A stretch of DNA of 32,000 bases from Xylanibacter ruminicola 23 (GCF_000025925.1 NC_014033.1:2250001-2282000); one strand, 5' to 3'; counted from the first letter of the stretch, positions 11,013 through 31,366 are shown. The notes: generated by a model from the letters alone, not told the origin. Translations and numbers: made by a program.

Positions 11013-11060
11013 TCCCCCCGCAAAACCATGTGAATGGCCCGCGAGGGGATTTCTTTTTTT
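11013..11060 (+). terminator. Rho-independent terminator after unit 1
   Basis: The stem is TCCCCCCGC ... GCGAGGGGA, followed by TTTCTTTTTTT. Confidence 0.7.
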
Positions 11061-11064
11061 CTAA

Positions 11065-11087
11065 CTGTAGCACTGTAGCGGTGTAGC
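11065..11087. repeat. YGCTACAG octamer array (3 units, CTGTAGC orientation)
   Basis: The sequence is CTGTAGCACTGTAGCGGTGTAGC. It matches 22/23 to the reverse complement of 30066-30088. Related arrays lie at 13609-13630 and 13725-13746. Confidence 0.8.
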
Positions 11088-11208: not shown

Positions 11209-12420
11209 ATGGATGCATTATTTAGAAAAAGCGACCGTTTACTGGCCAATACCAGCACAGAGATTGTACGCGAAATAGCAAATACAATCCATTGGAACGC
11301 CCAGCTAATTAGCATTATCGGTGCAAAAGGTGTGGGCAAGTCAACGCTCATTAAGCAGTATATCAAACAGAACTACGAACCTGGCGACAGGAGGGTTTTA
11401 TACTGCTCAGCTGATACTGTCGACTTTTCAACGCGCACACTGGTGGAACTAGCCGAAGAGTTTACCGTAAGAGGCGGCGAGCTGCTAGCCATCGACGAAA
11501 TCCACAAGTACAAATCGGGCAATACCGACTGGAGTCGTGAAATAAAGGAAATATACGAACTCTATCCCGACCTGAAGTTGATAGTAAGCGGATCATCACT
11601 ACTTAAACTAAAAGAAGGCGATGCTGACCTGTCACGACGAGCCGTAAAATATACACTGGCAGGATTGTCGTTTCGCGAAGCTTTACGTTTTTATCATGGA
11701 TTGGAGTTCGAAAAATGGACGTTAGACGACATTCTGAAGCACCCTTACGATTTATGGCAAACGGTGTCGACTAAGTGCAAGCCCAACGCACTGTTTAAGG
11801 AATATCTGAAAAAAGGCTACTACCCCTTTCTACTTGAAGGCGAGGGCGAGTATCACACAAAAATAGAGCAGGTGGTAAACTATATTATTGAAACAGAATT
11901 ACCCCAGATATGCAAGGTTGACGTGGCCAATGTAAGAAAACTGCAGGCACTTGTGGCGATGATATGCAGCGAGATACCTTTTGCACTAAATGCCAACCGA
12001 ATTGCCGCAGCCCTTGAAATTGGTCGCGACACGGTGGTGGAATACCTGAAATACCTGGGAGATGCCAAAGTATTAAATCTGCTTTACTCTGAAAAAAAGA
12101 AAATAGGCAAGCTCTCGAAACCCGATAAGGTATATCTCGAAAACCCCAATATCATGTATGCCCTAGCCCCTACCAAGGTTGAAATAGGAACACTACGCGA
12201 AACCTTTGCCGTGGGCAGTCTCACAGAGTCGCATAATGTTGAATACGGAAAAGCGCAAGGTGATTTTCTTGTTGACTCGAAGTACACATTCGAGATTGGC
12301 GGTCGCAGCAAGGATTTCTCGCAGATAGCAGGTATAAAGGATTCGTATATTTTTGCCGACGACTGGGATATGCCCGATGGTGCAAAACTCCCACTCTGGA
12401 TGCTAGGTTTCTTATATTAA
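11209..12420 (+). CDS. AAA+ ATPase of the COG1373 / AAA_14-DUF4143 type (403 aa)
   Basis: Walker A is GAKGVGKST and Walker B is LLAIDEIHK. The C-terminal region GDFLVDSKYTFEIGGRSK resembles the D...ExK nuclease-like tail of this family. Confidence 0.8.
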   Translation: MDALFRKSDRLLANTSTEIVREIANTIHWNAQLISIIGAKGVGKSTLIKQYIKQNYEPGDRRVLYCSADTVDFSTRTLVELAEEFTVRGGELLAIDEIHKYKSGNTDWSREIKEIYELYPDLKLIVSGSSLLKLKEGDADLSRRAVKYTLAGLSFREALRFYHGLEFEKWTLDDILKHPYDLWQTVSTKCKPNALFKEYLKKGYYPFLLEGEGEYHTKIEQVVNYIIETELPQICKVDVANVRKLQALVAMICSEIPFALNANRIAAALEIGRDTVVEYLKYLGDAKVLNLLYSEKKKIGKLSKPDKVYLENPNIMYALAPTKVEIGTLRETFAVGSLTESHNVEYGKAQGDFLVDSKYTFEIGGRSKDFSQIAGIKDSYIFADDWDMPDGAKLPLWMLGFLY

Positions 12421-12436
12421 TGATAATACAAAAAAA

Positions 12437-12470
12437 TCCCCTCGCTGATGATTCTGCGGGGGGATTCTTT
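12437..12470. terminator. Bidirectional terminator between the ATPase gene (+) and the small ORF (-)
   Basis: The stem is TCCCCTCGC ... GCGGGGGGA. An A-run lies on the left and a T-rich run on the right. On the minus strand the stem arms are identical to those of the 11013-11060 hairpin. Confidence 0.7.
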
Positions 12471-12471
12471 T

Positions 12472-12573
12472 CTACATGCCCATACAGCTGGTGGCGCCCA
12501 GGGCGGTTACTATCGCCGTTGCGATACTTGCAATCATCTGTACGATGAACTTCAGGGTTTCTTTCTTACTCAT
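12472..12573 (-). CDS. 33-aa small hydrophobic protein, 'smalltalk'-like peptide found next to Bacteroidales HU-like genes
   Basis: It is too short for the ORF track. The minus-strand ATG 12573 gives MSKKETLKFIVQMIASIATAIVTALGATSCMGM, ending at stop 12474-12472. The form is a charged N-terminus plus one helix ending in SC. It lies downstream of the HU-like gene and is followed by a strong terminator. The family name comes from memory of NCBI annotation. Confidence 0.6.
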   Translation of the reverse strand: MSKKETLKFIVQMIASIATAIVTALGATSCMGM

Positions 12574-12604
12574 AATGCTTTTAATAGTCAATGGTTAATA
12601 ATTT

Positions 12605-12698
12605 GGCACGGATTAACACGGCTTTATAAATAAAGACACGGCTTTTGTCGATGAAAAAAGAGCTGCGTTTCTCAAAAGAGAGCCGTGTAATCCGTGCC
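12605..12698. repeat. Palindromic 94-bp element, copy 1 (between the HU-like gene and the small ORF)
   Basis: The sequence is GGCACGGATTAACACGGCT...TCTCAAAAGAGAGCCGTGTAATCCGTGCC. The outer arms are inverted repeats. Copies 2 and 3 are at 15693-15787 and 16136-16229. Confidence 0.9.
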
Positions 12699-12703
12699 TA
12701 AAC

Positions 12704-13252
12704 TCAATCTCCGATTGGCTCGTGACTGCCGCCACCCTGGTTGCCGCCGGTGTTCTGACCGTTGCCACCGGTGTTACCGTTGTCGGTGGTGTTGCCGCTC
12801 TCAGGGTCCTCGATGTCGCTGCTGTCGCCACTGGTTACGCGCTTCAGTACGGTGCCGTCCTCGTCAAGGCAGGTAATCTGGATGCTGGTGTTCTTCAGCT
12901 CGTCCTTCACATCCACCGATGGGGTGAACACAATGCGACGGGTGGTAATCAGTCCGGTCTTCACGTCATCGAGCTTCTCAACGGCCTTGGCGCGCACGCC
13001 GAATCGCATGGTTCCCAGTCCGGGCACGGGTACCGAATGGCCCTCGGTGGCCCAGGTACGGATAACGGCGCCTGCTGCCTCCCATGCAGCCTTGATAACA
13101 CCTGCGCTAATGCCCGAGTGGGTGGCTGCCTCGGTAAACACCTTCTTCTCGGCGATGGCGCTGTACAGGTCGGGGCGCATCACGAAACGCTTGGCCCCAG
13201 GGTTCTTGCCGATCTTAAGCTCTCGGCGCTGTGCAATAACTTTGATACTCAT
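12704..13252 (-). CDS. Bacteroidales-type HU-like DNA-binding protein with G/N-rich acidic tail (182 aa)
   Basis: MSIKVIAQRRELKIGKNPGAKRFVMRPDLYSAIAEKKVF...VPVPGLGTMRF resembles the HU/IHF-fold 'putative DNA-binding protein' common in Bacteroides islands. The tail is NTTDNGNTGGNGQNTGGNQGGG. Confidence 0.75.
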   Translation of the reverse strand: MSIKVIAQRRELKIGKNPGAKRFVMRPDLYSAIAEKKVFTEAATHSGISAGVIKAAWEAAGAVIRTWATEGHSVPVPGLGTMRFGVRAKAVEKLDDVKTGLITTRRIVFTPSVDVKDELKNTSIQITCLDEDGTVLKRVTSGDSSDIEDPESGNTTDNGNTGGNGQNTGGNQGGGSHEPIGD

Positions 13253-13373
13253 AGGATAGTAAAATTAAAAAATTAAAAAATTAAAGAATTAAAAAATGTA
13301 ATAATTATAGGATTGTAAATAATTTTTAAATTTTATCATTTTTACATTTTTACATTGTTCTGAGTTCGGGTTC

Positions 13374-13493
13374 GGGCGGGGTATTAATCCTGCAGGGTGC
13401 TACGATTAAAGGTAACAATTGTTACTATTAATCTTCGCCGCTCGAGCTTCGCTCGCTTGGCTTGTCCAAGAAATCCGGGGATTAATATCGCCC
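13374..13493 (-). promoter_or_regulatory. Candidate structured 5' leader of the HU-like gene (closing stem plus three hairpins)
   Basis: GGGCGGGGTATTAATCC (13374-13390) pairs with GGATTAATATCGCCC (13479-13493). This stem encloses the GTAACAATTGTTAC palindrome (13412-13425), the CGAGC-TTC-GCTCG hairpin (13443-13455) and the CTTGG-cttgt-CCAAG hairpin (13456-13470). Confidence 0.4.
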
Positions 13494-13518
13494 TCAAGCC
13501 TCCCTCATTTTAACGTTA

Positions 13519-13526
13519 CAAAGGTA
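13519..13526 (-). promoter_or_regulatory. -7 promoter box (TAccTTTG on minus strand), implying a ~260-nt leader for the HU-like gene
   Basis: Plus strand caaaggta. I saw no other TAnnTTTG on the minus strand between here and ATG 13252. Confidence 0.4.
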
Positions 13527-13608
13527 CAACTTTTTCATTGCGGTTCACGAATAGCGAACCTACTTTTTTGCGAAAAATCACTGCGCGCGCCGCCACCATC
13601 CGCTGTCC

Positions 13609-13746
13609 GCTACGCGCTACAGCGCTACAGTTGTTTCCATCCCATCGCACACCATTATTTACTTCTATATTTATATATATAAATATAGGCACTACCGCTA
13701 CCACCCCCACCCCCGCAGTTCCAACTGTAGCACTGCAACGCGTAGC
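13609..13746. repeat. Symmetric element: inverted YGCTACAG arrays flanking a perfect 24-bp AT palindrome
   Basis: The left arm is GCTACGCGCTACAGCGCTACAG (13609-13630) and the right arm is CTGTAGCACTGCAACGCGTAGC (13725-13746). The palindrome CTATATTTATATATATAAATATAG (13665-13688) is centred within 2 bp of the midpoint between the arms. Confidence 0.8.
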
Positions 13747-13791
13747 ACACGTTTTTTTTCCAAAATATTTGGAAAATTGGAAATTAGTACG

Positions 13792-13799
13792 TATATTTG
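13792..13799 (+). promoter_or_regulatory. -7 promoter box TAtaTTTG for the MNT/HEPN operon
   Basis: The context is gtatatttgcacc, 22 nt upstream of ATG 13821. Confidence 0.55.
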
Positions 13800-13820
13800 C
13801 ACCATACAAAGCAATTAGTT

Positions 13821-14147
13821 ATGAACAATAGTAAAGTTATCGACAGTATTAAGCAGGTGGCCGAAAGGGTCTTACCCAAGGGTAGTCTGTTGTATCTCTA
13901 TGGGTCGCGTGCACGTGGAGACTGGCACGACGGTTCTGATTGGGATCTTCTGCTGATACTTGATAAGCCACGTCTTGAGCATGAGGATTTTAATAAGTAT
14001 TCCTATCCGTTTGTTGAAATGGGATGGGATATAGGCGAGGATATTCGTCCCCATGCATATACTAAGCAAGAGTGGTTTGATGGTCCACATGCTATGTTCT
14101 ATTATAATGTAGAAGAAGACAAACAAGTATTGTATGGAACTAAGTGA
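13821..14147 (+). CDS. Minimal nucleotidyltransferase (MNT-type, antitoxin-like) protein, 108 aa
   Basis: It carries the pol-beta NTase signature LYLYGSRARGDWHDGSDWDLLLIL. I moved the start to ATG 13821 because the TTG at 13797 lies inside the promoter box. Confidence 0.85.
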   Translation: MNNSKVIDSIKQVAERVLPKGSLLYLYGSRARGDWHDGSDWDLLLILDKPRLEHEDFNKYSYPFVEMGWDIGEDIRPHAYTKQEWFDGPHAMFYYNVEEDKQVLYGTK

Positions 14148-14541
14148 TAACGAGAGATCAACCATCGTACGCATGGAAATGGAGAAGGCACGCAAAACTT
14201 TTGCCGATATGGAATTTTGTGCCAAAGAGCAGAAATGGGAGGCTGCTGCCAATCGCCTGTACTATGCTTTGTTTCATGCGGTATCAGCCTTACTTATCAG
14301 TGGCGGTCAGAATGTAAAAAGTCATCGTGGCATCATGTCTCTTTTCGGACAGCATTATGTTCGTACAGGACTATTTACGAGCGAAGATGGTTCACTCCTC
14401 TCTGACCTTGTGATTATGCGCGATAACGCAGACTATAACCTATTCTTTGAGGCGAACGAGGAGAAAATCACTCCCTATATTGAGCCCACAAGACTGCTGA
14501 TTGATAAGATAGCAGAATTTGTTATTCCTAAAAACTCTTAA
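14134..14541 (+). CDS. HEPN-domain protein (135 aa), partner of the MNT gene
   Basis: It overlaps the MNT gene by 14 nt. NRLYYALFHAVSALLISGGQNVKSHRGIMSLF and VIMRDNADY are typical of MNT-associated HEPN proteins. Confidence 0.8.
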   Translation: MELSDNERSTIVRMEMEKARKTFADMEFCAKEQKWEAAANRLYYALFHAVSALLISGGQNVKSHRGIMSLFGQHYVRTGLFTSEDGSLLSDLVIMRDNADYNLFFEANEEKITPYIEPTRLLIDKIAEFVIPKNS

Positions 14542-14580
14542 TTATAACCTGCAGTTTTTGGTGGGTGCGAAGGTTTTTAT

Positions 14581-14588
14581 TATCTTTG
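14581..14588 (+). promoter_or_regulatory. -7 promoter box TAtcTTTG for the S24 peptidase gene
   Basis: The context is tttattatctttgcagcc. It lies inside the GTG-extended ORF, which argues for the downstream ATG 14667 as the true start. Confidence 0.5.
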
Positions 14589-14666
14589 CAGCCGTTTGGC
14601 GACCTGTGGAACGGCGCCGACTATGGATTATATTGTGAAATAAAACTTTTTAAAGAATTAATCGAC

Positions 14667-15479
14667 ATGAGAAATTTTAGTAGCATCGGTCAGTGGCCGA
14701 TGGAAATGGTGTGCGACACACCCGTGCCTTACTACGAAGTGGGAGTTAGTTGTGGACTGCCTGGCGAAATGGGGGAGCTGCCACCCGAGATGGTGCTGCT
14801 GCCCAGCATGCTGACGCGTGGCCGGCAAGTGTTTATCGTGGATGCCGATGGCGACTCGATGACCGGCGTGGGCATTTACAGTGGTGATGCGCTGCTGATA
14901 GAGAGTACACAGCGGGTGCACTGCGGCGAAGTGGTGATGGTGAGCATCGACGGCGAGGAGCTGTTGAAGGTGTATTACGTTGACGACACGGGGCGCCACT
15001 GGCTGTTGGCCGCCAACCCGAAGTACCAGCCACGCGAACTAACGGCCGACATGAATGTACGCATCTGCGGGCGCATGGTGTGCAACCTGAGTGCGCCGCA
15101 CGTATCGGTAAAGCACTGTGGCGAAGTGGTACGCCAGTTTAAAGCCAAGCAGAAGCAGCACCAGCCCGACATGTATGAGCGCCTGACCGAAGCCGTTATC
15201 CAGTGCAGTCATCTGTTTTGGGCAGCATCGGCCTGGGCAGTGGTTTTCGGTGTACTGCGCGATAAATACAGTTATGACAAGCCAGTTGCCGAGTTTGAGC
15301 GTATGGCCCAGGCCTTAAAGCTACCTGCTACGTTTAGGTTTGTATGTGGCGAAGGCAGTGTGCAGCGCACCATCAGTAATCATGAGTACATGCGAAAGAG
15401 TATCGACAAGTGGGAGGAGCAAGGTGCTGCCGACCGCGAACTGAAGCTGATGACGGTTTTAATTAAAGAATTGGCTTAG
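14667..15479 (+). CDS. S24 (UmuD/LexA-type) self-cleaving peptidase domain fused to a ~130-aa C-terminal domain of unknown function (270 aa)
   Basis: It has GDSM (Ser nucleophile), a Lys in EELLKVYY, and a Cys29-Gly30 candidate cleavage site (VGVSCGLPGE) like UmuD Cys24-Gly25. There is no N-terminal HTH. The C-terminal part QCSHLFWAASAWAVVFGVLRDKYSYDKPVAEFERMAQ... is unrecognised. Confidence 0.75.
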   Translation: MRNFSSIGQWPMEMVCDTPVPYYEVGVSCGLPGEMGELPPEMVLLPSMLTRGRQVFIVDADGDSMTGVGIYSGDALLIESTQRVHCGEVVMVSIDGEELLKVYYVDDTGRHWLLAANPKYQPRELTADMNVRICGRMVCNLSAPHVSVKHCGEVVRQFKAKQKQHQPDMYERLTEAVIQCSHLFWAASAWAVVFGVLRDKYSYDKPVAEFERMAQALKLPATFRFVCGEGSVQRTISNHEYMRKSIDKWEEQGAADRELKLMTVLIKELA

Positions 15480-15481
15480 TT

Positions 15482-15565
15482 TTACCGAACCTGTTACCGA
15501 ACTTCGGTAAGTATTAGTACCAAAGTTACCGAAACCTACAACACTTACCGAAAACTGTTACCGAA
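15482..15565. promoter_or_regulatory. Array of six TTACCGAA sites (one inverted, forming a 17-bp perfect palindrome)
   Basis: TTACCGAA occurs at 15482, 15494, 15526, 15545 and 15558, and TTCGGTAA at 15503. Positions 15494-15510 read TTACCGAACTTCGGTAA. The array starts 2 nt after the S24 stop codon. Confidence 0.7.
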
Positions 15566-15598
15566 TGCGTTCCAAGAAATTGGAGCGCATTATTTTTT
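15565..15598 (+). terminator. Rho-independent terminator after the S24 gene and site array
   Basis: The stem is ATGCGTTCCAA-gaaa-TTGGAGCGCAT (one G-T pair), followed by TATTTTTT. Confidence 0.65.
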
Positions 15599-15602
15599 GC
15601 CA

Positions 15603-15610
15603 TACTTTTG
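15603..15610 (+). promoter_or_regulatory. -7 promoter box TActTTTG for the antirepressor gene
   Basis: The context is gccatacttttgcagcg. It implies a ~210-nt leader that contains palindromic element copy 2. Confidence 0.45.
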
Positions 15611-15692
15611 CAGCGTGATTCAGTTCACGAGTGTTCTTTGACTTACTGCCACACCAACCCGACTCGGAATCGGCCGAGCGGATTTATTCTTA

Positions 15693-15787
15693 GGCACGGA
15701 TTTACACGGCTTTATAAATAAAGACACAGCTGTTATCAATGAAAAGAAAGCAGCGTTTCTCTAAAAGAGAGCCGTGTCATCCGTGCC
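15693..15787. repeat. Palindromic 95-bp element, copy 2 (5' leader of the antirepressor gene)
   Basis: The sequence is GGCACGGATTTACACGGCTTTATAAATAAAGACACAGCT...TCTCTAAAAGAGAGCCGTGTCATCCGTGCC. The left flank GAGCGGATTTATTCTTA resembles the left flank of copy 3. Confidence 0.9.
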
Positions 15788-15826
15788 CCCAAAAATATTA
15801 TTAACAATTTAAATACACACACAATT

Positions 15827-16591
15827 ATGGAAACAATGATTATTAAAACAGTAAACGAGAACCAACACATGATGACTTCGCTGGAAATAGCTGAAGTAAC
15901 CGGTAAGCAGCACTGTCACGTAATGGAGGCCATCCGAAAAATGGAACCCGCGTGGCAGAAAGTTAATCAATCAAATTTTCGATTGATTGAATATACCGAC
16001 AGTCGAGGTCGACTGATGCCCTGCTACCAGCTAACCAAGACCGAGACGCTCTACATCGCCACCAAGTTTAACGACGAGGCCCGCGCCCGACTCGTTCTGC
16101 GTTGGGAAGAACTGGAACGCGAGCGGATTATTTTTGGCACGGATGACACGGCCTTTTTAAAAAAGGACACGGCTTATATCGATGAAGAAAGCAGCGTCTC
16201 TCTAAAAGAGAGCCGTGTTAATCCGTGCCTAAGAAAACTTCCATCGTTGGGCGTTCAGAAACAGATACTGGCGATGGCGGATGAGATTGTGGGTACGGGA
16301 CTGCGCATGCTGAACGAGCCTGCCGAGGATACACTCACCGCCACGCAGGTGGCCAAGACGTTTAACATGAACACCCGCGACTTTAATGCCGTGCTGGCCG
16401 ACATGAACATTCAGTACCGCGCCCACGGCCGATGGCACCTGGCCGAACACCTGCTGGGTAGGGGCTACACCGCCGAACGTACACACATCGACTACTCGCT
16501 GAAAGGCAAGCGCAAAATCAAAGTGTACATGACGTGGACCATGGCCGGACTGAAGTACCTTAACTCGCAATTGGGATACCCTAACCTTTAG
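15827..16591 (+). CDS. Rha-family N-terminal domain fused to a KilAC/ANT-like antirepressor C-terminal domain (254 aa)
   Basis: MTSLEIAEVTGKQHCHVMEAIRKM...YQLTKTETLYIATKFNDEARARLVLRWEELE is Rha-like. The C-terminal TATQVAKTFNMNTRDFNAVLADMNIQY...GLKYL is KilAC-like. The linker is encoded by repeat copy 3. Confidence 0.75.
   Translation: METMIIKTVNENQHMMTSLEIAEVTGKQHCHVMEAIRKMEPAWQKVNQSNFRLIEYTDSRGRLMPCYQLTKTETLYIATKFNDEARARLVLRWEELERERIIFGTDDTAFLKKDTAYIDEESSVSLKESRVNPCLRKLPSLGVQKQILAMADEIVGTGLRMLNEPAEDTLTATQVAKTFNMNTRDFNAVLADMNIQYRAHGRWHLAEHLLGRGYTAERTHIDYSLKGKRKIKVYMTWTMAGLKYLNSQLGYPNL
16136..16229. repeat. Palindromic 94-bp element, copy 3, in frame inside the antirepressor CDS (residues 104-134)
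   Basis: GGCACGGATGACACGGCC...TCTCTAAAAGAGAGCCGTGTTAATCCGTGCC translates as GTDDTAFLKKDTAYIDEESSVSLKESRVNPC with no stop. Confidence 0.9.
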
Positions 16592-16592
16592 G

Positions 16593-16627
16593 ACATTAAA
16601 CATTAAAGATTAAACATTAAACATTAA
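16593..16627. repeat. Heptamer array (ACATTAA/AGATTAA x5)
   Basis: It starts 2 nt after the antirepressor stop. The 7-nt period places TAA in all three frames. Confidence 0.9.
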
Positions 16628-16628
16628 A

Positions 16629-16709
16629 GGCCTCGATTAAGCGAGAGCAGAGCCAAGCTTGCTTGAGCTTTGCCGAGTGTGAGAGGGCTCGATACGAAGT
16701 ATCAACATT
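16629..16709 (+). repeat. 81-bp repeat, copy A, ending 5 nt before the lysozyme ATG
   Basis: GGCCTCGATTAAGCGAGAGCAGAGCCAAGCTTGCTTGAGCTTTGCCGAGTGTGAGAGGGCTCGATACGAAGTATCAACATT matches 19491-19571 at 80/81 positions. The single difference is 16678 T versus 19540 C. Confidence 0.95.
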
Positions 16710-16714
16710 TTACT

Positions 16715-17179
16715 ATGCAGATTACAGACACACTTTTACAGAAATTGATGGAGATGGAGGGATGCCGACTAAGCGCTTATCGCGACGAGGGCGGCGTGCC
16801 TACCATCGGCTACGGACACACACGCGGTGTGCGCATGGGCGACCGCATCAGCCCCCAGCAGGCTCGCGACTGGCTGCTACAGGATGCCACCGAGGTGATG
16901 CGACAGGTGCGACGCCTGCACGTGGCACGCACCGAGGCGCAACTAGAGGCACTCACATCGTTTGCCTTTAACGTGGGCATCGGACGGCTGAAGCAGTCAA
17001 CCCTGCTCAAAACCATCCGCCAAGGCGGCAGCAAGGCTGCCATCCAGCGCCAGTTTAAACGATGGGTGTATGCCGGCGGTAGCAAGTTGCCCGGTTTGGT
17101 AGCCCGTCGCCAATGGGAGGCCGAACACTTCTTCGCCCCCAGCTACCCAACGGATGACGAAATCATCGACCGGGTGTGA
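16715..17179 (+). CDS. GH24 phage-type lysozyme (endolysin-like, 154 aa)
   Basis: The T4/lambda-type lysozyme signature is LMEMEGCRLSAYRDEGGVPTIGYGHTRGV, followed by ALTSFAFNVG. I moved the start to ATG 16715 because the track ORF starts at a TTG inside the 81-bp repeat. Confidence 0.85.
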   Translation: MQITDTLLQKLMEMEGCRLSAYRDEGGVPTIGYGHTRGVRMGDRISPQQARDWLLQDATEVMRQVRRLHVARTEAQLEALTSFAFNVGIGRLKQSTLLKTIRQGGSKAAIQRQFKRWVYAGGSKLPGLVARRQWEAEHFFAPSYPTDDEIIDRV

Positions 17180-17207
17180 ACATTAAACATTAAAGATTAA
17201 ACATTAA
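17180..17207. repeat. Heptamer array (ACATTAA/AGATTAA x4)
   Basis: It lies immediately after the lysozyme TGA and runs up to the primase-helicase start. Confidence 0.9.
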
Positions 17208-17216
17208 AGATTGGCT

Positions 17217-19475
17217 ATGAGCACACACATTATTTATTTAAAGGACGGGGTGAAAATGATGCGCCCCGTAACCACCCGCGCAGAGTATATGGCCCTGCGC
17301 GGCAGTAACGAACAGCAGCAACTGATGGCCGCCATACGCAGCGGCAACGAGACGTTGAAGCACCGGCTGGTGCAGATGAACTACAGTTGTCTGCCCAATG
17401 CCGACGGCACACTGCGCGGCAGCACCCGTATGAGCAATACCGTGGGTATGGATATCGACCACCTATCGGCCGAAGAGATGCCCGCCGTTCGCGAGCGCAT
17501 CCTGGACAAGAAGGATGAGCTGGGACTAGGGATGCTTGAGGAGAGTGCCCGCGGCTGTGGCTACCACCTGGTGTTTACCCGACGGCCGCACATGTCGCAG
17601 GTAGAGAACCTGCAGTGGGCCGCCCAGCTGCTAGGCGTGGACTACGATGCCCAGGCCAAGGACATCACCCGCGTGTTCTTCACCACCGGCACCGAGCAGC
17701 TTATCTATCTGGATGATGCCATCTTTGAACTCCCGTCCTCGGAAAGTTGTGACAAGGGACAGGGCCCAGTCACATTCTGTGACAGGTACCAGTCCCCAGT
17801 CACAAAGACTGATTCCGTTGACAATTTTCAAGAAGGAAAAATCCTAAAGTCCTGTATTCCGTTGCAAAAAGATTACAACGGCATGGCTTTCTCGGATATT
17901 ATCGCAAAGTATTGGGAGCTGTTTAACGGTGGCAAGCTGCCGGTGGTGGGCGATAGGAACGCACTCACCTTCGAGTTGGCCGTTACCCTGCGCTCTATCT
18001 GCGGCTACAGTCTGGAGGGCCTGCAGGCCATCGTACCCAACTACTGGGCTGCACCCGATGGCACCTGCACCGATGCCGACCGCACCGAATATCTGCACAC
18101 ACTGGAAAACGCCCTGAAAGAGCCCCGCCGCGGCATGCCCCTGCGCCTGAAACAGGTATTGCAGGCACTCAAGGAGCAGCAAGGTGTAAAGGCCTGCGGG
18201 GGTACCGTAAGCACGCCTCCACCCATGCCCAAGCGGTTGCCGCCATTGATAAAACTGCTAACCCGCAACGTGCCGTGGTACTACAAGCCCGCTGTGGCCA
18301 GTGCCGTGTTTCCTGCCCTGGGCGCCCATCTGCATGGCGTACACTTCCGCTATTGGGACAACGTGGATCACGAGGCCACGTTTATGAACCTGCTGGTGGG
18401 CCGACAGAGCGTGGGTAAGGGCTCGATCAAAAAGCCCATCGAGTATATCATGGAGGACATACGCCAGCACGACCTGCTCAGTCGCCAGCGCGAGGCCGAG
18501 TGGAAGCAGAAGAACCCCACTGGCAAGCAGAAGAAGGACCCGCGCCCCGCCGACATCTGCATTCAGATGCTGATAGACAACCTGACCGACGCCGTGTTTA
18601 ACCAGCGCGTGGTGGATGCCAACAACAACGGAGAGCGCTACATCTACACCATTGTAGACGAGGTAGAGGCTCTGAAGAAGGTGACATCGAGCCATAAGGC
18701 CGACGAGGTGGGACTGCTGATACGAAAGGCTTTCGACAACTCGATGGCAGGTCAGGAGCGTGTGGGTGCCGACAGCGTATCGGGCATAGCACCGCTGCGC
18801 TGGAACTTCAACGCCAGCACCACCCCACCCAACGCGCGCAAGTTCTTTTATAAGATGGTGAACGATGGCACGGTGAGCCGACTGGATGTGGCCACCATCA
18901 TCCGTCCCATCGAAGACGACGACGAGGCACCCATCCTGGGCATCTACGACGACCGTTTTGCCGCCGAGCTCAAACCCTATATCGACCGTCTGGATGCTGC
19001 CAACGGACTGATAGAGTGCCCGCAAGCCCGCAAGCTGGCACTTGACCTGAAGCAGGAGAATGCCGACACCGCCCGCTTGTACGAGAGCGAGGCCTACCGT
19101 GTGCTGTCGTATCGTGCCAACGTGATAGCCTGGCTTAAGGGTATGGTGCTGTATGTGGCCCATGGCTACCGGTGGGACAAGCAGATAGCTGAGTTTGTGC
19201 GCTGGAGCGAGCAGTATAACCTATGGTGCAAGATGCTGTACTTTGGAACCCAGCTTGAGAAGGAGCTGAACGACGAGCAGGAACTGCAGCGCCACTCGGG
19301 TCCCCAGAACCTGCTGGAGCTGCTACCCGATGAGTTTACCCGCGAGCAGTATCTGCAGATGCGCCAGCAAGCCGGCCGCCCCGGTCCCGGCGACAGCACC
19401 CTGCGCACCTGGCAAACCCGCGGCCACATAGCTTTTGATGAAACGGCAGGCCGTTTCCTCAAGATTAAACATTAA
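17217..19475 (+). CDS. VirE_N (BT4734-like) domain plus DUF3987-like P-loop region: putative primase-helicase (752 aa)
   Basis: The N-terminal region (MNYSCLPNADGTLRGSTRMSNTVGMDIDH...GYHLVFTR...ITRVFFTTG) resembles the VirE N-domain family of Bacteroides. It has a P-loop-like VGRQSVGKGS and a Walker B-like YIYTIVDEVEAL. I prefer ATG 17217 over TTG 17211. The stop codon lies inside a heptamer array. Confidence 0.7.
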   Translation: MSTHIIYLKDGVKMMRPVTTRAEYMALRGSNEQQQLMAAIRSGNETLKHRLVQMNYSCLPNADGTLRGSTRMSNTVGMDIDHLSAEEMPAVRERILDKKDELGLGMLEESARGCGYHLVFTRRPHMSQVENLQWAAQLLGVDYDAQAKDITRVFFTTGTEQLIYLDDAIFELPSSESCDKGQGPVTFCDRYQSPVTKTDSVDNFQEGKILKSCIPLQKDYNGMAFSDIIAKYWELFNGGKLPVVGDRNALTFELAVTLRSICGYSLEGLQAIVPNYWAAPDGTCTDADRTEYLHTLENALKEPRRGMPLRLKQVLQALKEQQGVKACGGTVSTPPPMPKRLPPLIKLLTRNVPWYYKPAVASAVFPALGAHLHGVHFRYWDNVDHEATFMNLLVGRQSVGKGSIKKPIEYIMEDIRQHDLLSRQREAEWKQKNPTGKQKKDPRPADICIQMLIDNLTDAVFNQRVVDANNNGERYIYTIVDEVEALKKVTSSHKADEVGLLIRKAFDNSMAGQERVGADSVSGIAPLRWNFNASTTPPNARKFFYKMVNDGTVSRLDVATIIRPIEDDDEAPILGIYDDRFAAELKPYIDRLDAANGLIECPQARKLALDLKQENADTARLYESEAYRVLSYRANVIAWLKGMVLYVAHGYRWDKQIAEFVRWSEQYNLWCKMLYFGTQLEKELNDEQELQRHSGPQNLLELLPDEFTREQYLQMRQQAGRPGPGDSTLRTWQTRGHIAFDETAGRFLKIKH

Positions 19476-19489
19476 ACATTAAACATTAA
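19462..19489. repeat. Heptamer array (AGATTAA/ACATTAA x4) that contains the primase-helicase stop codon
   Basis: The sequence is AGATTAAACATTAAACATTAAACATTAA. The last codons, K-I-K-H-stop, are encoded by the array. Confidence 0.9.
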
Positions 19490-19490
19490 A

Positions 19491-19571
19491 GGCCTCGATT
19501 AAGCGAGAGCAGAGCCAAGCTTGCTTGAGCTTTGCCGAGCGTGAGAGGGCTCGATACGAAGTATCAACATT
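19491..19571 (+). repeat. 81-bp repeat, copy B, 17 nt before ATG 19589
   Basis: It is 80/81 identical to 16629-16709. Confidence 0.95.
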
Positions 19572-19587
19572 AAACATTAAAGATTAA
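19567..19587. repeat. Heptamer array (ACATTAA x2, AGATTAA x1)
   Basis: It lies directly upstream of ATG 19589. Confidence 0.85.
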
Positions 19588-19588
19588 A

Positions 19589-19957
19589 ATGGAACACATT
19601 GATAACACACAAGAAACGTTTGTGGCACTGTGGCGGCTGTTGCGCCGCACGCGCCGCTACTGCCATCTGCACTGCAAGCGCTTTTGCATCCGCAGGGTAC
19701 TGCAACTATGGTTTGGTGGCGAGGCCACCCCCGAGTTTATCTGGCAAGTATGCCACCTTTGCTGTCAGGCCGGTTGGGACCAGCTCCCACCGCCTGGCCT
19801 CTACCCGCGCCCGCATCGCGAACTGCTGCGTGCCATCGTGGCCGTGCGCACAGGCATCAGCTACTACCAGATTGACCTGCGCGCCCTCGACGCCGCCTAC
19901 ACCATCGCCTACCCCAAAAGCACACCACTGAACGTGAACAAAAAGAAGAAATCTTAA
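19589..19957 (+). CDS. Hypothetical Cys/Arg/Trp-rich protein (122 aa); a DUF4248-like role is possible from its position after the VirE-like gene, but sequence does not support it
   Basis: It is the longest of four overlapping ORFs in a GC-rich stretch. It is the only one preceded by the same 81-bp repeat plus heptamer leader seen before the lysozyme gene. I recognise no motif. Confidence 0.4.
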   Translation: MEHIDNTQETFVALWRLLRRTRRYCHLHCKRFCIRRVLQLWFGGEATPEFIWQVCHLCCQAGWDQLPPPGLYPRPHRELLRAIVAVRTGISYYQIDLRALDAAYTIAYPKSTPLNVNKKKKS

Positions 19958-30065: not shown

Positions 30066-30088
30066 GCTACAGCGCTACAGTGCTACAG
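30066..30088. repeat. YGCTACAG octamer array (3 units, GCTACAG orientation)
   Basis: The sequence is GCTACAGCGCTACAGTGCTACAG. It is the near-perfect inverted partner of 11065-11087. Confidence 0.8.
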
Positions 30089-30096
30089 TAAGAATC

Positions 30097-30591: not shown

Positions 30592-31305
30592 ATGATGGAA
30601 TTTAAGATAGTGCACGTTGATGAGACCGATTCTACCAACCGTTGGATGAAGGAAAACGGCGAGGGTGTGATGGTGGTTGTGGCTGATTTTCAGACTGCTG
30701 GAAAGGGTTGCGGCTCCAACACATGGGAGAGCGAGCGGGGCCAGAACCTGCTTTTCTCGGTGCTTATCCACCCCCAGAAGGTATCAGCACGCACACAGTT
30801 CATCATTACCCAGATGGTATCGGTAGCCCTGTGCAACACCTTGCAGCGCTACATACCGCAAACACCCGAAATAAAATGGCCTAACGACATTTATGTAGGC
30901 GACAAGAAGATATGCGGCGTGCTGATTGAAAACCGACTGGAGGGGCACCGCATCAAGGACTGCGTGATAGGCATCGGACTGGACGTGAACCAGACAGTGT
31001 TTGTGAGCGATGCCCCCAACCCCGTATCTATCAAACAGCTGACAGGCCGCGACACCGATCGCGACGAGCTGTTGGCGGCTTTCCTCGACGAACTGCAACG
31101 CGCCATCGAAAACAAGGGCATACACCAGGCGTACATGAACCGTCTGTACCGTCGCGAGGGACTGCACCCGTTCGAAGCCAACGGCAAGCGCTTTATGGCC
31201 ACCGTGGTTGGCACTACCGACGACGGCCGCCTGATGCTGCAGGATGCCAACGGCATAGCACATCTGTACCGATTTAAAGAAGTGGTTTTTGTCATTGAAC
31301 ATTGA
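30592..31305 (+). CDS. birA: Biotin--[acetyl-CoA-carboxylase] ligase (group I, no HTH)
   Basis: The motifs are DETDSTNRW, QTAGKGCGSNTWES (a GRGRxGRxW-type loop) and KWPNDIYVGDKKICGVLIE. I set the start at ATG 30592, downstream of the promoter box. Confidence 0.85.
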   Translation: MMEFKIVHVDETDSTNRWMKENGEGVMVVVADFQTAGKGCGSNTWESERGQNLLFSVLIHPQKVSARTQFIITQMVSVALCNTLQRYIPQTPEIKWPNDIYVGDKKICGVLIENRLEGHRIKDCVIGIGLDVNQTVFVSDAPNPVSIKQLTGRDTDRDELLAAFLDELQRAIENKGIHQAYMNRLYRREGLHPFEANGKRFMATVVGTTDDGRLMLQDANGIAHLYRFKEVVFVIEH

Positions 31306-31327
31306 CCATTGACCATTGAACATTAAA
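31293..31327. repeat. Heptamer array (CATTGAA/CATTGAC/CATTAAA x5) that contains the birA stop codon, followed by TAGTAAA-type units up to pyrH
   Basis: The sequence is CATTGAACATTGACCATTGACCATTGAACATTAAA, followed by TGGTAAAATAGTAAATAGTGAAATAGTAAAATTAAAGAG and then ATG 31367. Confidence 0.9.
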
Positions 31328-31366
31328 TGGTAAAATAGTAAATAGTGAAATAGTAAAATTAAAGAG

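Follow-up and report, generated by a model that had tools for sequence, protein, structure and literature searches.

We identify a family of short foldback repeats in Prevotellaceae, one copy of which is read in frame as the linker between the two domains of a Rha-KilAC antirepressor-like protein. Related elements are dispersed over unlinked contigs of other Prevotellaceae genomes, orthologous genes occur with and without the insert, conservation lies at the level of the nucleotides, and the frame of the host gene is maintained through many linker states. We propose, at a probability of about three in four, that the insert is a dispersed, non-autonomous foldback-type (MITE/REP-like) repeat that is tolerated in a permissive linker, filtered for an open frame, and subject to rapid deletion and conversion. 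A copy would reach the Rha/KilAC linker by insertion or by copying from a neighbouring element, and only open-frame, stop-free variants would survive there, translated as a spacer of roughly 31 residues. Interiors would be exchanged between copies, probably by gene conversion anchored on the common termini, and palindrome-prone deletions would take out most of the element and leave in-frame footprints.

Three copies of a foldback repeat

The window (the whole 32-kb stretch of DNA that was analysed) holds three copies of the element, all in + orientation and at the coordinates given in the preliminary description (Table 1). Their mean column identity is 84%, flanks included. A profile search of the 32-kb window with the family model recovers each copy at E = 7e-25 to 9e-24 and finds no fourth. 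Folding, proposed earlier as a check, gives a long stable hairpin for every copy (dG -43.6 to -47 kcal/mol, z -6.6 to -8.5), and none of 200 shuffles folds equally well.

Table 1. Element copies, host genes and associated features in the window
Feature	Position	Strand	Remarks
DUF6486 ORF, 33 aa (MSKKETLKFIVQMIASIATAIVTALGATSCMGM)	12476..12574	-	PF20096, E 4e-12
Copy 1	12605-12698 (94 nt)	+	dG -47 kcal/mol, z -8.5
HU-HIG DNA-binding protein gene	12704..13252	-	Pfam scan
Copy 2	15693-15787 (95 nt)	+	intergenic, 40 nt before Rha-KilAC start codon
Rha-KilAC antirepressor-like ORF, 254 aa	15827..16591	+	host of copy 3
Divergent patch 5' of copy 3	16100..16135	+	ERERIIF instead of ELERLDF; contains GAGCGGATT
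Copy 3	16136-16229 (94 nt)	+	dG -45.4 kcal/mol, z -6.6; E 6.8e-25
BT4734-like gene, 754 aa	17211..19475	+	weak PF08800 at residues 72-164
Hotspot DDAIF[...]YNGMAFS in BT4734-like gene	17727-17873	+	in-frame palindromes
Two 27-nt palindromes (TGTGACAAGGGACAGGGCCCAGTCACA; TGTGACA...GTCACA)	17747..17805	+	different repeat family, in frame

The termini, GGCACGGAT...ATCCGTGCC, are invariant across the family. The arms are built of CACGG sub-repeats spaced about 10-11 nt apart and include terminal inverted repeats, GGCACGGATnnACACGGC and GCCGTGTnATCCGTGCC, that pair with each other; between the arms lie a small AT-rich hairpin (CTTTATAAATAAAG, or in copy 3 CCTTTTTAAAAAAGG), a central one and one of the form TCTC-AAAA-GAGA. 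The element has a polarity, one orientation always scoring higher in the profile search. A cloverleaf-like model was checked against 16 copies, drawn from the window, from orthologous loci and from other genomes of the Prevotellaceae: 91.9% of its pairs form, versus 36-48% in controls with the partners shifted by 1-3 columns. In these 16 copies the outer stem (17 pairs) is 96% paired and most of its pairs do not vary, and compensatory changes affect three pairs of the first small hairpin and one of the last, with covariation at positions 19-33 (CG8/UA8), 22-30 (AU10/UA5) and 71-81 (CG13/UA3). The pairing of the internal hairpins is thus kept by compensatory changes, pointing to structural constraint or hairpin-templated correction that acts on the element itself. 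Rfam 15 has no match in the window at the gathering threshold and, at E <= 1 over 12400-16400, nothing that overlaps any copy. An intrinsic terminator signature is likewise missing: no U-tract follows the stems, which run into TAAGAAAA, TAAACTC or CCCAAAAA, and the terminator scan calls no copy. In the literature searched, we found no published description of the family.

Copy 3 lies within the Rha-KilAC ORF, where Pfam places a Rha domain (PF09669) at residues 16-98 and a KilAC/ANT domain (PF03374) at 166-249. Codon 104 begins at 16136. Frame +1 (GGC ACG GAT...) is the only one in which the element is open, and it supplies residues 104-134 as GTDDTAFLKKDTAYIDEESSVSLKESRVNPC. Domain calls and translation thus bear out the earlier description of an in-frame segment between the two domains, as well as its reading of copy 2, which in the equivalent frame gives GTDLHGFINKDTAVINEKKAAFL and then a stop. 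The AlphaFold model of the protein is weak overall (mean pLDDT 55): residues 101-167 score below 50, and residues 104-132 show no secondary structure. We set it aside for fold searches at that confidence and kept it only for the coil-like, low-confidence linker, which is consistent with our view that the peptide of copy 3 is probably a disordered spacer of ~31 residues.

The other two copies are intergenic. Copy 1 begins 5 nt past the HU-HIG stop codon and fills most of the 129-nt spacer between that stop (12704) and the DUF6486 start (12574); as both genes are on the minus strand, it is antisense to its operon. At the corresponding position, two orthologous loci (L005 and L006) have a small GC hairpin (GGGGCGAAAGCCCC). 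A terminator-like hairpin (15564-15591) and a TAnnTTTG-like box (TACTTTTG, about 15598-15605) both precede copy 2, which therefore probably belongs to the 5'UTR of the Rha-KilAC gene. The site of copy 2 is filled in the window and in L008; in L001 and L003-L007 the copy is absent or shrunk to a footprint. The match between the left flanks of copies 2 and 3, drawn attention to earlier, is real, with GAGCGGATT at 15676-15684 and again at 16121-16129, but this flank is native to the upstream site and is kept in loci that have no element.

Linker states, reading frame and a second hotspot

The preliminary description had proposed asking whether orthologues lack the 31-codon segment, and many do. 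We compared the 120 best homologues of Rha-KilAC (72-100% identity, from rumen Prevotella/Xylanibacter), in which the flanking domains are nearly invariant and the linker between ...RWEELE.ER and KLP.L.VQK takes at least 25 states; this search lists intact predicted proteins only, and frame counts made on such a list would be biased. Linker DNA was read directly in eight fetched loci. One state is the same 94-nt element with a +1/-1 indel pair, whose middle reads ...AVINEKEQCLSKREPCNPCL instead of ...AYIDEESSVSLKESRVNPCL. The inner reading frame shifts, so the peptide differs though the nucleotides are the same, even within one family. Other linkers hold a second family, with arms of three CACGGAT units paired with three ATTCGTG units; composite elements, nested or tandem, as long as 136 nt; a third family that occurs either way round and is translated as RSALPLGSSKNPC or, when reverse-complemented, as DSWTSQAAKPS; or, in other lineages, unrelated palindromic families (e.g. 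AGGGGACAGTCCCT...AGGGACAGTCCCC, dG -38.5 kcal/mol, z -5.4). Still others are footprints, such as GGCACGGATGACACG/TGCC in L007, TTAGGCACG/AAC in L006, and TTTTGGC/CCCCAAAAAC in L001; the last of these is what the filled L130 allele becomes once 90 nt are removed. In homologues farther off (52-66% identity) the linker measures 4-9 residues, e.g. LKRKQQL and VRRKMS, and on this comparison the short linker is taken as the ancestral state. A segment present in all orthologues and conserved as a peptide, which would have spoken for ordinary coding sequence, is not what we find: the nucleotides are conserved and the peptide is not. Together, the many orthologues that lack the 31 codons and the conservation at nucleotide level argue for an independent element.

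We counted reading frames on DNA, anchoring the Rha and KilAC domains separately by tblastn, such that broken alleles among the fetched loci were detectable. In all 79 loci with both domains the linker length is a multiple of three and stop-free, a count drawn from loci picked by tblastn match to the query protein, among which linker-broken alleles are possibly under-sampled. All six genic copies of the element are open in frame +1, and almost only there; in ten of ten intergenic copies this frame, like most of the others, is interrupted by a stop. The genic copies, copy 3 included, form an ORF-compatible subfamily of their own (GGATGACACGGCCTTTTTAAAAAAGG...), which is also found in frame in the neighbouring gene, where the L007 copy is 1 nt off the Rha copy of L004. 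A frame kept in all loci, together with genic copies that are open, indicates purifying selection on the host protein, which leaves only variants compatible with the ORF. For the inserted peptide there is no sign of selection. The data fit an insert that is tolerated in a permissive linker and filtered for open-frame variants, and we infer that the insert is itself neutral.

The BT4734-like gene contains the same kind of palindrome hotspot as the Rha-KilAC linker. At this site L008 has the same palindromes as the window, L003-L007 have elements with GGCACGGAT termini (of the CACGGAT type in L003-L006, and of the same family as copy 3 in L007), and L001 has a related GGCACGAAT-type (CACGAAT) element. 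The hotspot is in frame in 49 of 49 loci, drawn from the window, L001-L008 and the range L129-L208. These comprise 42 distinct alleles from several repeat families, of which 25 have z < -3 and 17 are not hairpin-forming; among control segments of equal length taken 300 nt downstream, z < -3 occurs in 1 of 39.

Turnover and dispersal

Elements turn over between nearly identical flanks. The window and L003 have different elements inside flanks of 96-99% nucleotide identity, and L001 and L006 have different footprints between flanks that are 98.5-99.6% identical. At the upstream site of copy 2, filled, footprint and empty-like alleles occur among the loci. Next to copy 3, the patch in Table 1 is 73-88% identical between the window and L008, versus about 100% across the rest of the gene. 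In the window it reads GCGAGCGGATTATTTTT and matches the left flank of copy 2. As that flank is native upstream, we infer that copy 2 ectopically converted copy 3, probably with a tract that overran the element.

The near-isogenic alleles L145 (filled) and L189/L191 differ by a 105-nt in-frame deletion in which TTTAGGCACGG is retained. We considered L189 as a virgin empty site and rejected it, as the retained TTTAGGCACGG leaves no readable target-site duplication. Among the loci compared, no virgin site stands beside a filled one, and every empty-like allele keeps element ends. The element is flanked by T-rich sequence on its left side and by A-rich sequence on its right (TTTTA/.../TAAAA), with no duplicated stretch of constant length and no virgin site for comparison. 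No transposase, autonomous partner or parent IS with matching ends was seen in the fetched loci.

Two further roles in rearrangement were considered and rejected. A phase switch driven by inversion across the facing arms of copies 2 and 3 finds no support, since both domains are on the same strand in 79 of 79 loci. The element is also not a domain-swap breakpoint, in that the window/L004 mosaic breaks within the Rha domain (about 15872-16040) and not at the element. In a separate set of loci (L198-L204 and L207), KilAC (about 75% identity) is fused to a BRO-N-like domain, named by eye, instead of Rha; these fusions reflect domain shuffling at about the Rha-KilAC junction, where they carry no palindromic element.

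In the window and in L008, all copies lie in one gene cluster of roughly 4-8 kb (HU-HIG / S24 / Rha-KilAC / lysozyme / BT4734-like), with none in the other 24 kb or more; the three copies of the window fall within 3.7 kb. This confinement could mean local spread and not genome-wide mobility. Across the window and the orthologous loci, where all copies again fall within this cluster, elements recur at five sites: the spacer between HU and DUF6486, the region upstream of Rha, the interiors of the Rha and BT4734-like genes, and the stretch that follows the latter. Beyond these loci, we scanned a genome collection of 596 Gb with the loose pattern GGCACGGATN{2,3}ACACGG, for which most of the matches listed are chance hits in other phyla; about ten useful Prevotellaceae/Bacteroides loci are among them. 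In each of three Prevotellaceae metagenome-assembled genomes (MAGs), at least two related elements lie on unlinked contigs. These are intergenic, often between convergent housekeeping genes, and none of the cluster genes is nearby. BLAST of the element against a phage collection gave no match, and a pattern scan of viral contigs gave a real element in one of 17 matches, which suggests no particular link to phages.

The same searches brought up other hairpins. One Prevotella MAG contig stops about 25 nt past the left arm of an element (TTTTTAGGCACGGATTGACACGGATGGACACGG..., L062 3826-3875), as expected if repeats break short-read assemblies. Hairpins with arms of tandem decamers that contain CACGGAT are found in distant phyla: in Hyphomicrobiales (L025 6186-6457), in Victivallales (L098 2900-3260, as tandem units), in Sphingobacteriales (L125 1846-2007) and in Bacteroides (L108 3880-3947). 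These distant hairpins may represent a widespread architecture caught through the search pattern, or a motif with shared meaning.

Several other repeats accompany the cluster. After the S24 repressor-like gene (15480-15570) lie five TTACCGAA boxes, some of them inverted; at this position the boxes are AGTTTCTG in L008, L004, L003 and L001, and CTGCACA in L006. These look like putative operator arrays whose specificity is swapped between alleles. Heptad arrays (ACATTAA/AGATTAA) are found at or just past stop codons at 16593-16628, 17180-17215, 19448-19494, 19567-19602 and 31292-31348. Past the BT4734-like gene, the spacer measures 5 nt in L006, consists of heptad arrays that differ in length in L001 and L008, and holds palindromic elements in L003, L004, L005 and L007. 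A 126-nt intergenic repeat (16599-16724 and 19461-19586, 93% identical; also 13436-13476) contains another palindromic family, a possible relative of the CGCTCGGCTTTGCCGCTTGGCTTGTCCAAG element that is read in either orientation within Rha-KilAC orthologues. Inverted arrays of GCTACAG type, which bracket or adjoin the cluster, occur at 13609-13633 and 13722-13746 (arms 88% complementary, 88 nt apart) and at 11059-11087 and 30066-30094 (arms 93% complementary, 19 kb apart). Between the HU-HIG and S24 genes, the window has a nucleotidyltransferase/HEPN gene pair (13821-14541), at the position of which L003 and L008 have an AbiEii-type gene and the other loci have neither; from this variation by locus, we predict a variable toxin-antitoxin or defence islet.

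Alternative readings and known repeat families

A functional cis-element in RNA or DNA, be it an mRNA stabiliser, a processing, pause or frameshift site between the domains, or an operon barrier between genes, is unlikely. Such a role would sit well with the very stable fold of all copies and the compensatory changes that keep their internal hairpins, with copy 1 lying where other loci have a small GC hairpin right after the HU gene, with the probable 5'UTR position of copy 2, and with a U-run directly 5' of copy 3. That U-run, however, is missing from 'ERLGTD' alleles, and distant homologues have short linkers (4-9 residues). The element is dispensable, near-identical alleles having a different element or only a footprint of 6-15 nt; its orientation relative to transcription is inconsistent, as the antisense copy 1 illustrates; and there is no U-tract after the stem, no terminator call and no Rfam family. 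Alleles without the hairpin, inconsistent orientation and no terminator signature together make a required RNA hairpin unlikely. The earlier suggestion that a hairpin is embedded on purpose, for processing or pausing, therefore finds no support as a conserved function, given that flanks of 99% identity carry another element or a footprint. A putative lineage-specific effect on mRNA stability, pausing or frameshifting is possible. We regard as distinctly improbable that both linkers are maintained as landing or conversion sites with putative hairpins that act in mRNA or DNA. In mRNA, pausing, frameshifting or cleavage may yield a separate N-terminal domain; in DNA, the hairpins may provide arrays of CACGG binding sites or a recombination hotspot. 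If true, the phage-derived cluster would gain a built-in, fast-evolving switch.

We give little credence to an adaptive hypervariable linker, serving for example in phage conflict, in which fast-mutating palindromes would be recruited to vary the length or sequence of the linkers in the antirepressor and the BT4734-like protein. The same applies to CACGG arrays as binding sites for a protein encoded by the cluster, which would sit inside a gene much as the lambda origin does in the linker-coding part of gene O. Allele diversity is extreme and follows the same pattern in two adjacent genes, the sub-repeat period is roughly one helical turn, and the element is locally enriched in a cluster whose products include HU-HIG, S24-repressor-like and Rha DNA-binding proteins. 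The same families nevertheless occur in housekeeping intergenic regions with no cluster genes nearby, and identical N-terminal anchors are followed by unrelated repeat motifs, such that motif and protein do not co-vary. Moreover, 17 of 42 alleles in the neighbouring gene are not hairpin-forming, and the peptides are low-complexity by-products of the DNA repeat. It is hardly credible that the in-gene segment is ordinary coding sequence and that the intergenic copies are what decay has left of duplicated antirepressor genes. The GAGCGGATT stretch common to the left flanks of copies 2 and 3 could be taken as such a remnant, but it is native upstream and present where no element exists. No other Rha-KilAC sequence lies beside copies 1 or 2, contradicting the decay that the preliminary description had named as its refutation; related elements are also found in loci without cluster genes, and the segment is missing in orthologues and conserved at the nucleotide level independent of frame.

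Of the two explanations offered in the preliminary description, the exaptation of a MITE/REP-like element as a protein linker fares better, and in part. A MITE/REP-like element in the linker is supported by its absence in orthologues, its nucleotide conservation and its relatives elsewhere; the word 'exapted' is not, as no use of it is shown.

The closest analogues of this tolerated foldback repeat are the Rickettsia palindromic elements (RPEs), hairpin repeats of roughly 100-150 bp in several families that are both intergenic and in frame in functional genes, to whose products they contribute an extra peptide segment (PMC10969869, PMC3733652). The element shares with them its in-frame insertion in functional ORFs, here in 79/79 Rha-KilAC and 49/49 BT4734-like loci. 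Its host is, however, a member of the Bacteroidota (Prevotellaceae), an unrelated phylum, so that the two are likened by behaviour and not by sequence. RPEs are single insertions over many genes, whereas here families, orientations and footprints pile up at two sites in adjacent genes, and the peptide of the Prevotellaceae element, unlike that of RPEs, is not conserved even within a family. By this comparison the element works like an RPE, as an analogue and not a member. In-frame palindromic repeats as such are already known from Rickettsia RPEs and intragenic REPs (PMC10969869, PMC3733652). The unusual feature here is a multi-family hotspot in the linkers of two adjacent genes.

REP elements are dispersed palindromes, mostly downstream of or between convergent genes and sometimes in ORFs, and are possible RNA elements; their units are palindromes of 20-40 bp with a terminal GTAG or CGTC tag (PMC3733652). 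The present family resembles REPs, BIMEs and REPINs in being dispersed, palindromic, often placed between convergent genes and sometimes intragenic. It differs in that it ends in GGCACGG/CCGTGCC with no GTAG/CGTC tag and that its arm units (CACGGAT) are not palindromic, and on these two grounds we ruled out a RAYT-type REP. RAYT tyrosine transposases mobilise REPs, and the RAYT gene is often flanked by the repeats; no RAYT gene was seen in the loci examined.

Bacterial MITEs, among them Correia/NEMIS, ERIC, BOX and RUP, are small, multi-copy and mostly intergenic, with occasional in-frame ORF fusions (PMC10969869, PMC11602168), and are common in Bacteroidota (PMC11602168). Like them, the element is small and non-coding with terminal inverted repeats, and its 94-95 bp lie within the MITE range (about 50-800 bp); the window has three copies of it. 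Unlike them, the whole element is a foldback and not unique DNA between short inverted repeats, and no target-site duplication or parent IS was identified in the loci examined. The foldback (FB) transposons of eukaryotes have long inverted arms made of short tandem sub-repeats and are much larger. The likeness of the element to them is architectural only, in another domain of life and with a mechanism that is unrelated or unknown.

Our findings add abundant Bacteroidota of the rumen to the organisms in which selfish DNA is lodged within protein-coding genes, a phenomenon for which Rickettsia RPEs are the best-known case. In-frame repeat segments of this kind inflate apparent protein diversity and can break metagenome assemblies and gene calls in Prevotella. 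With one linker in dozens of states between near-invariant domains, the family offers a natural experiment on how permissive a linker is, on the speed at which palindromes are gained, converted and deleted, and on how the reading frame filters them.
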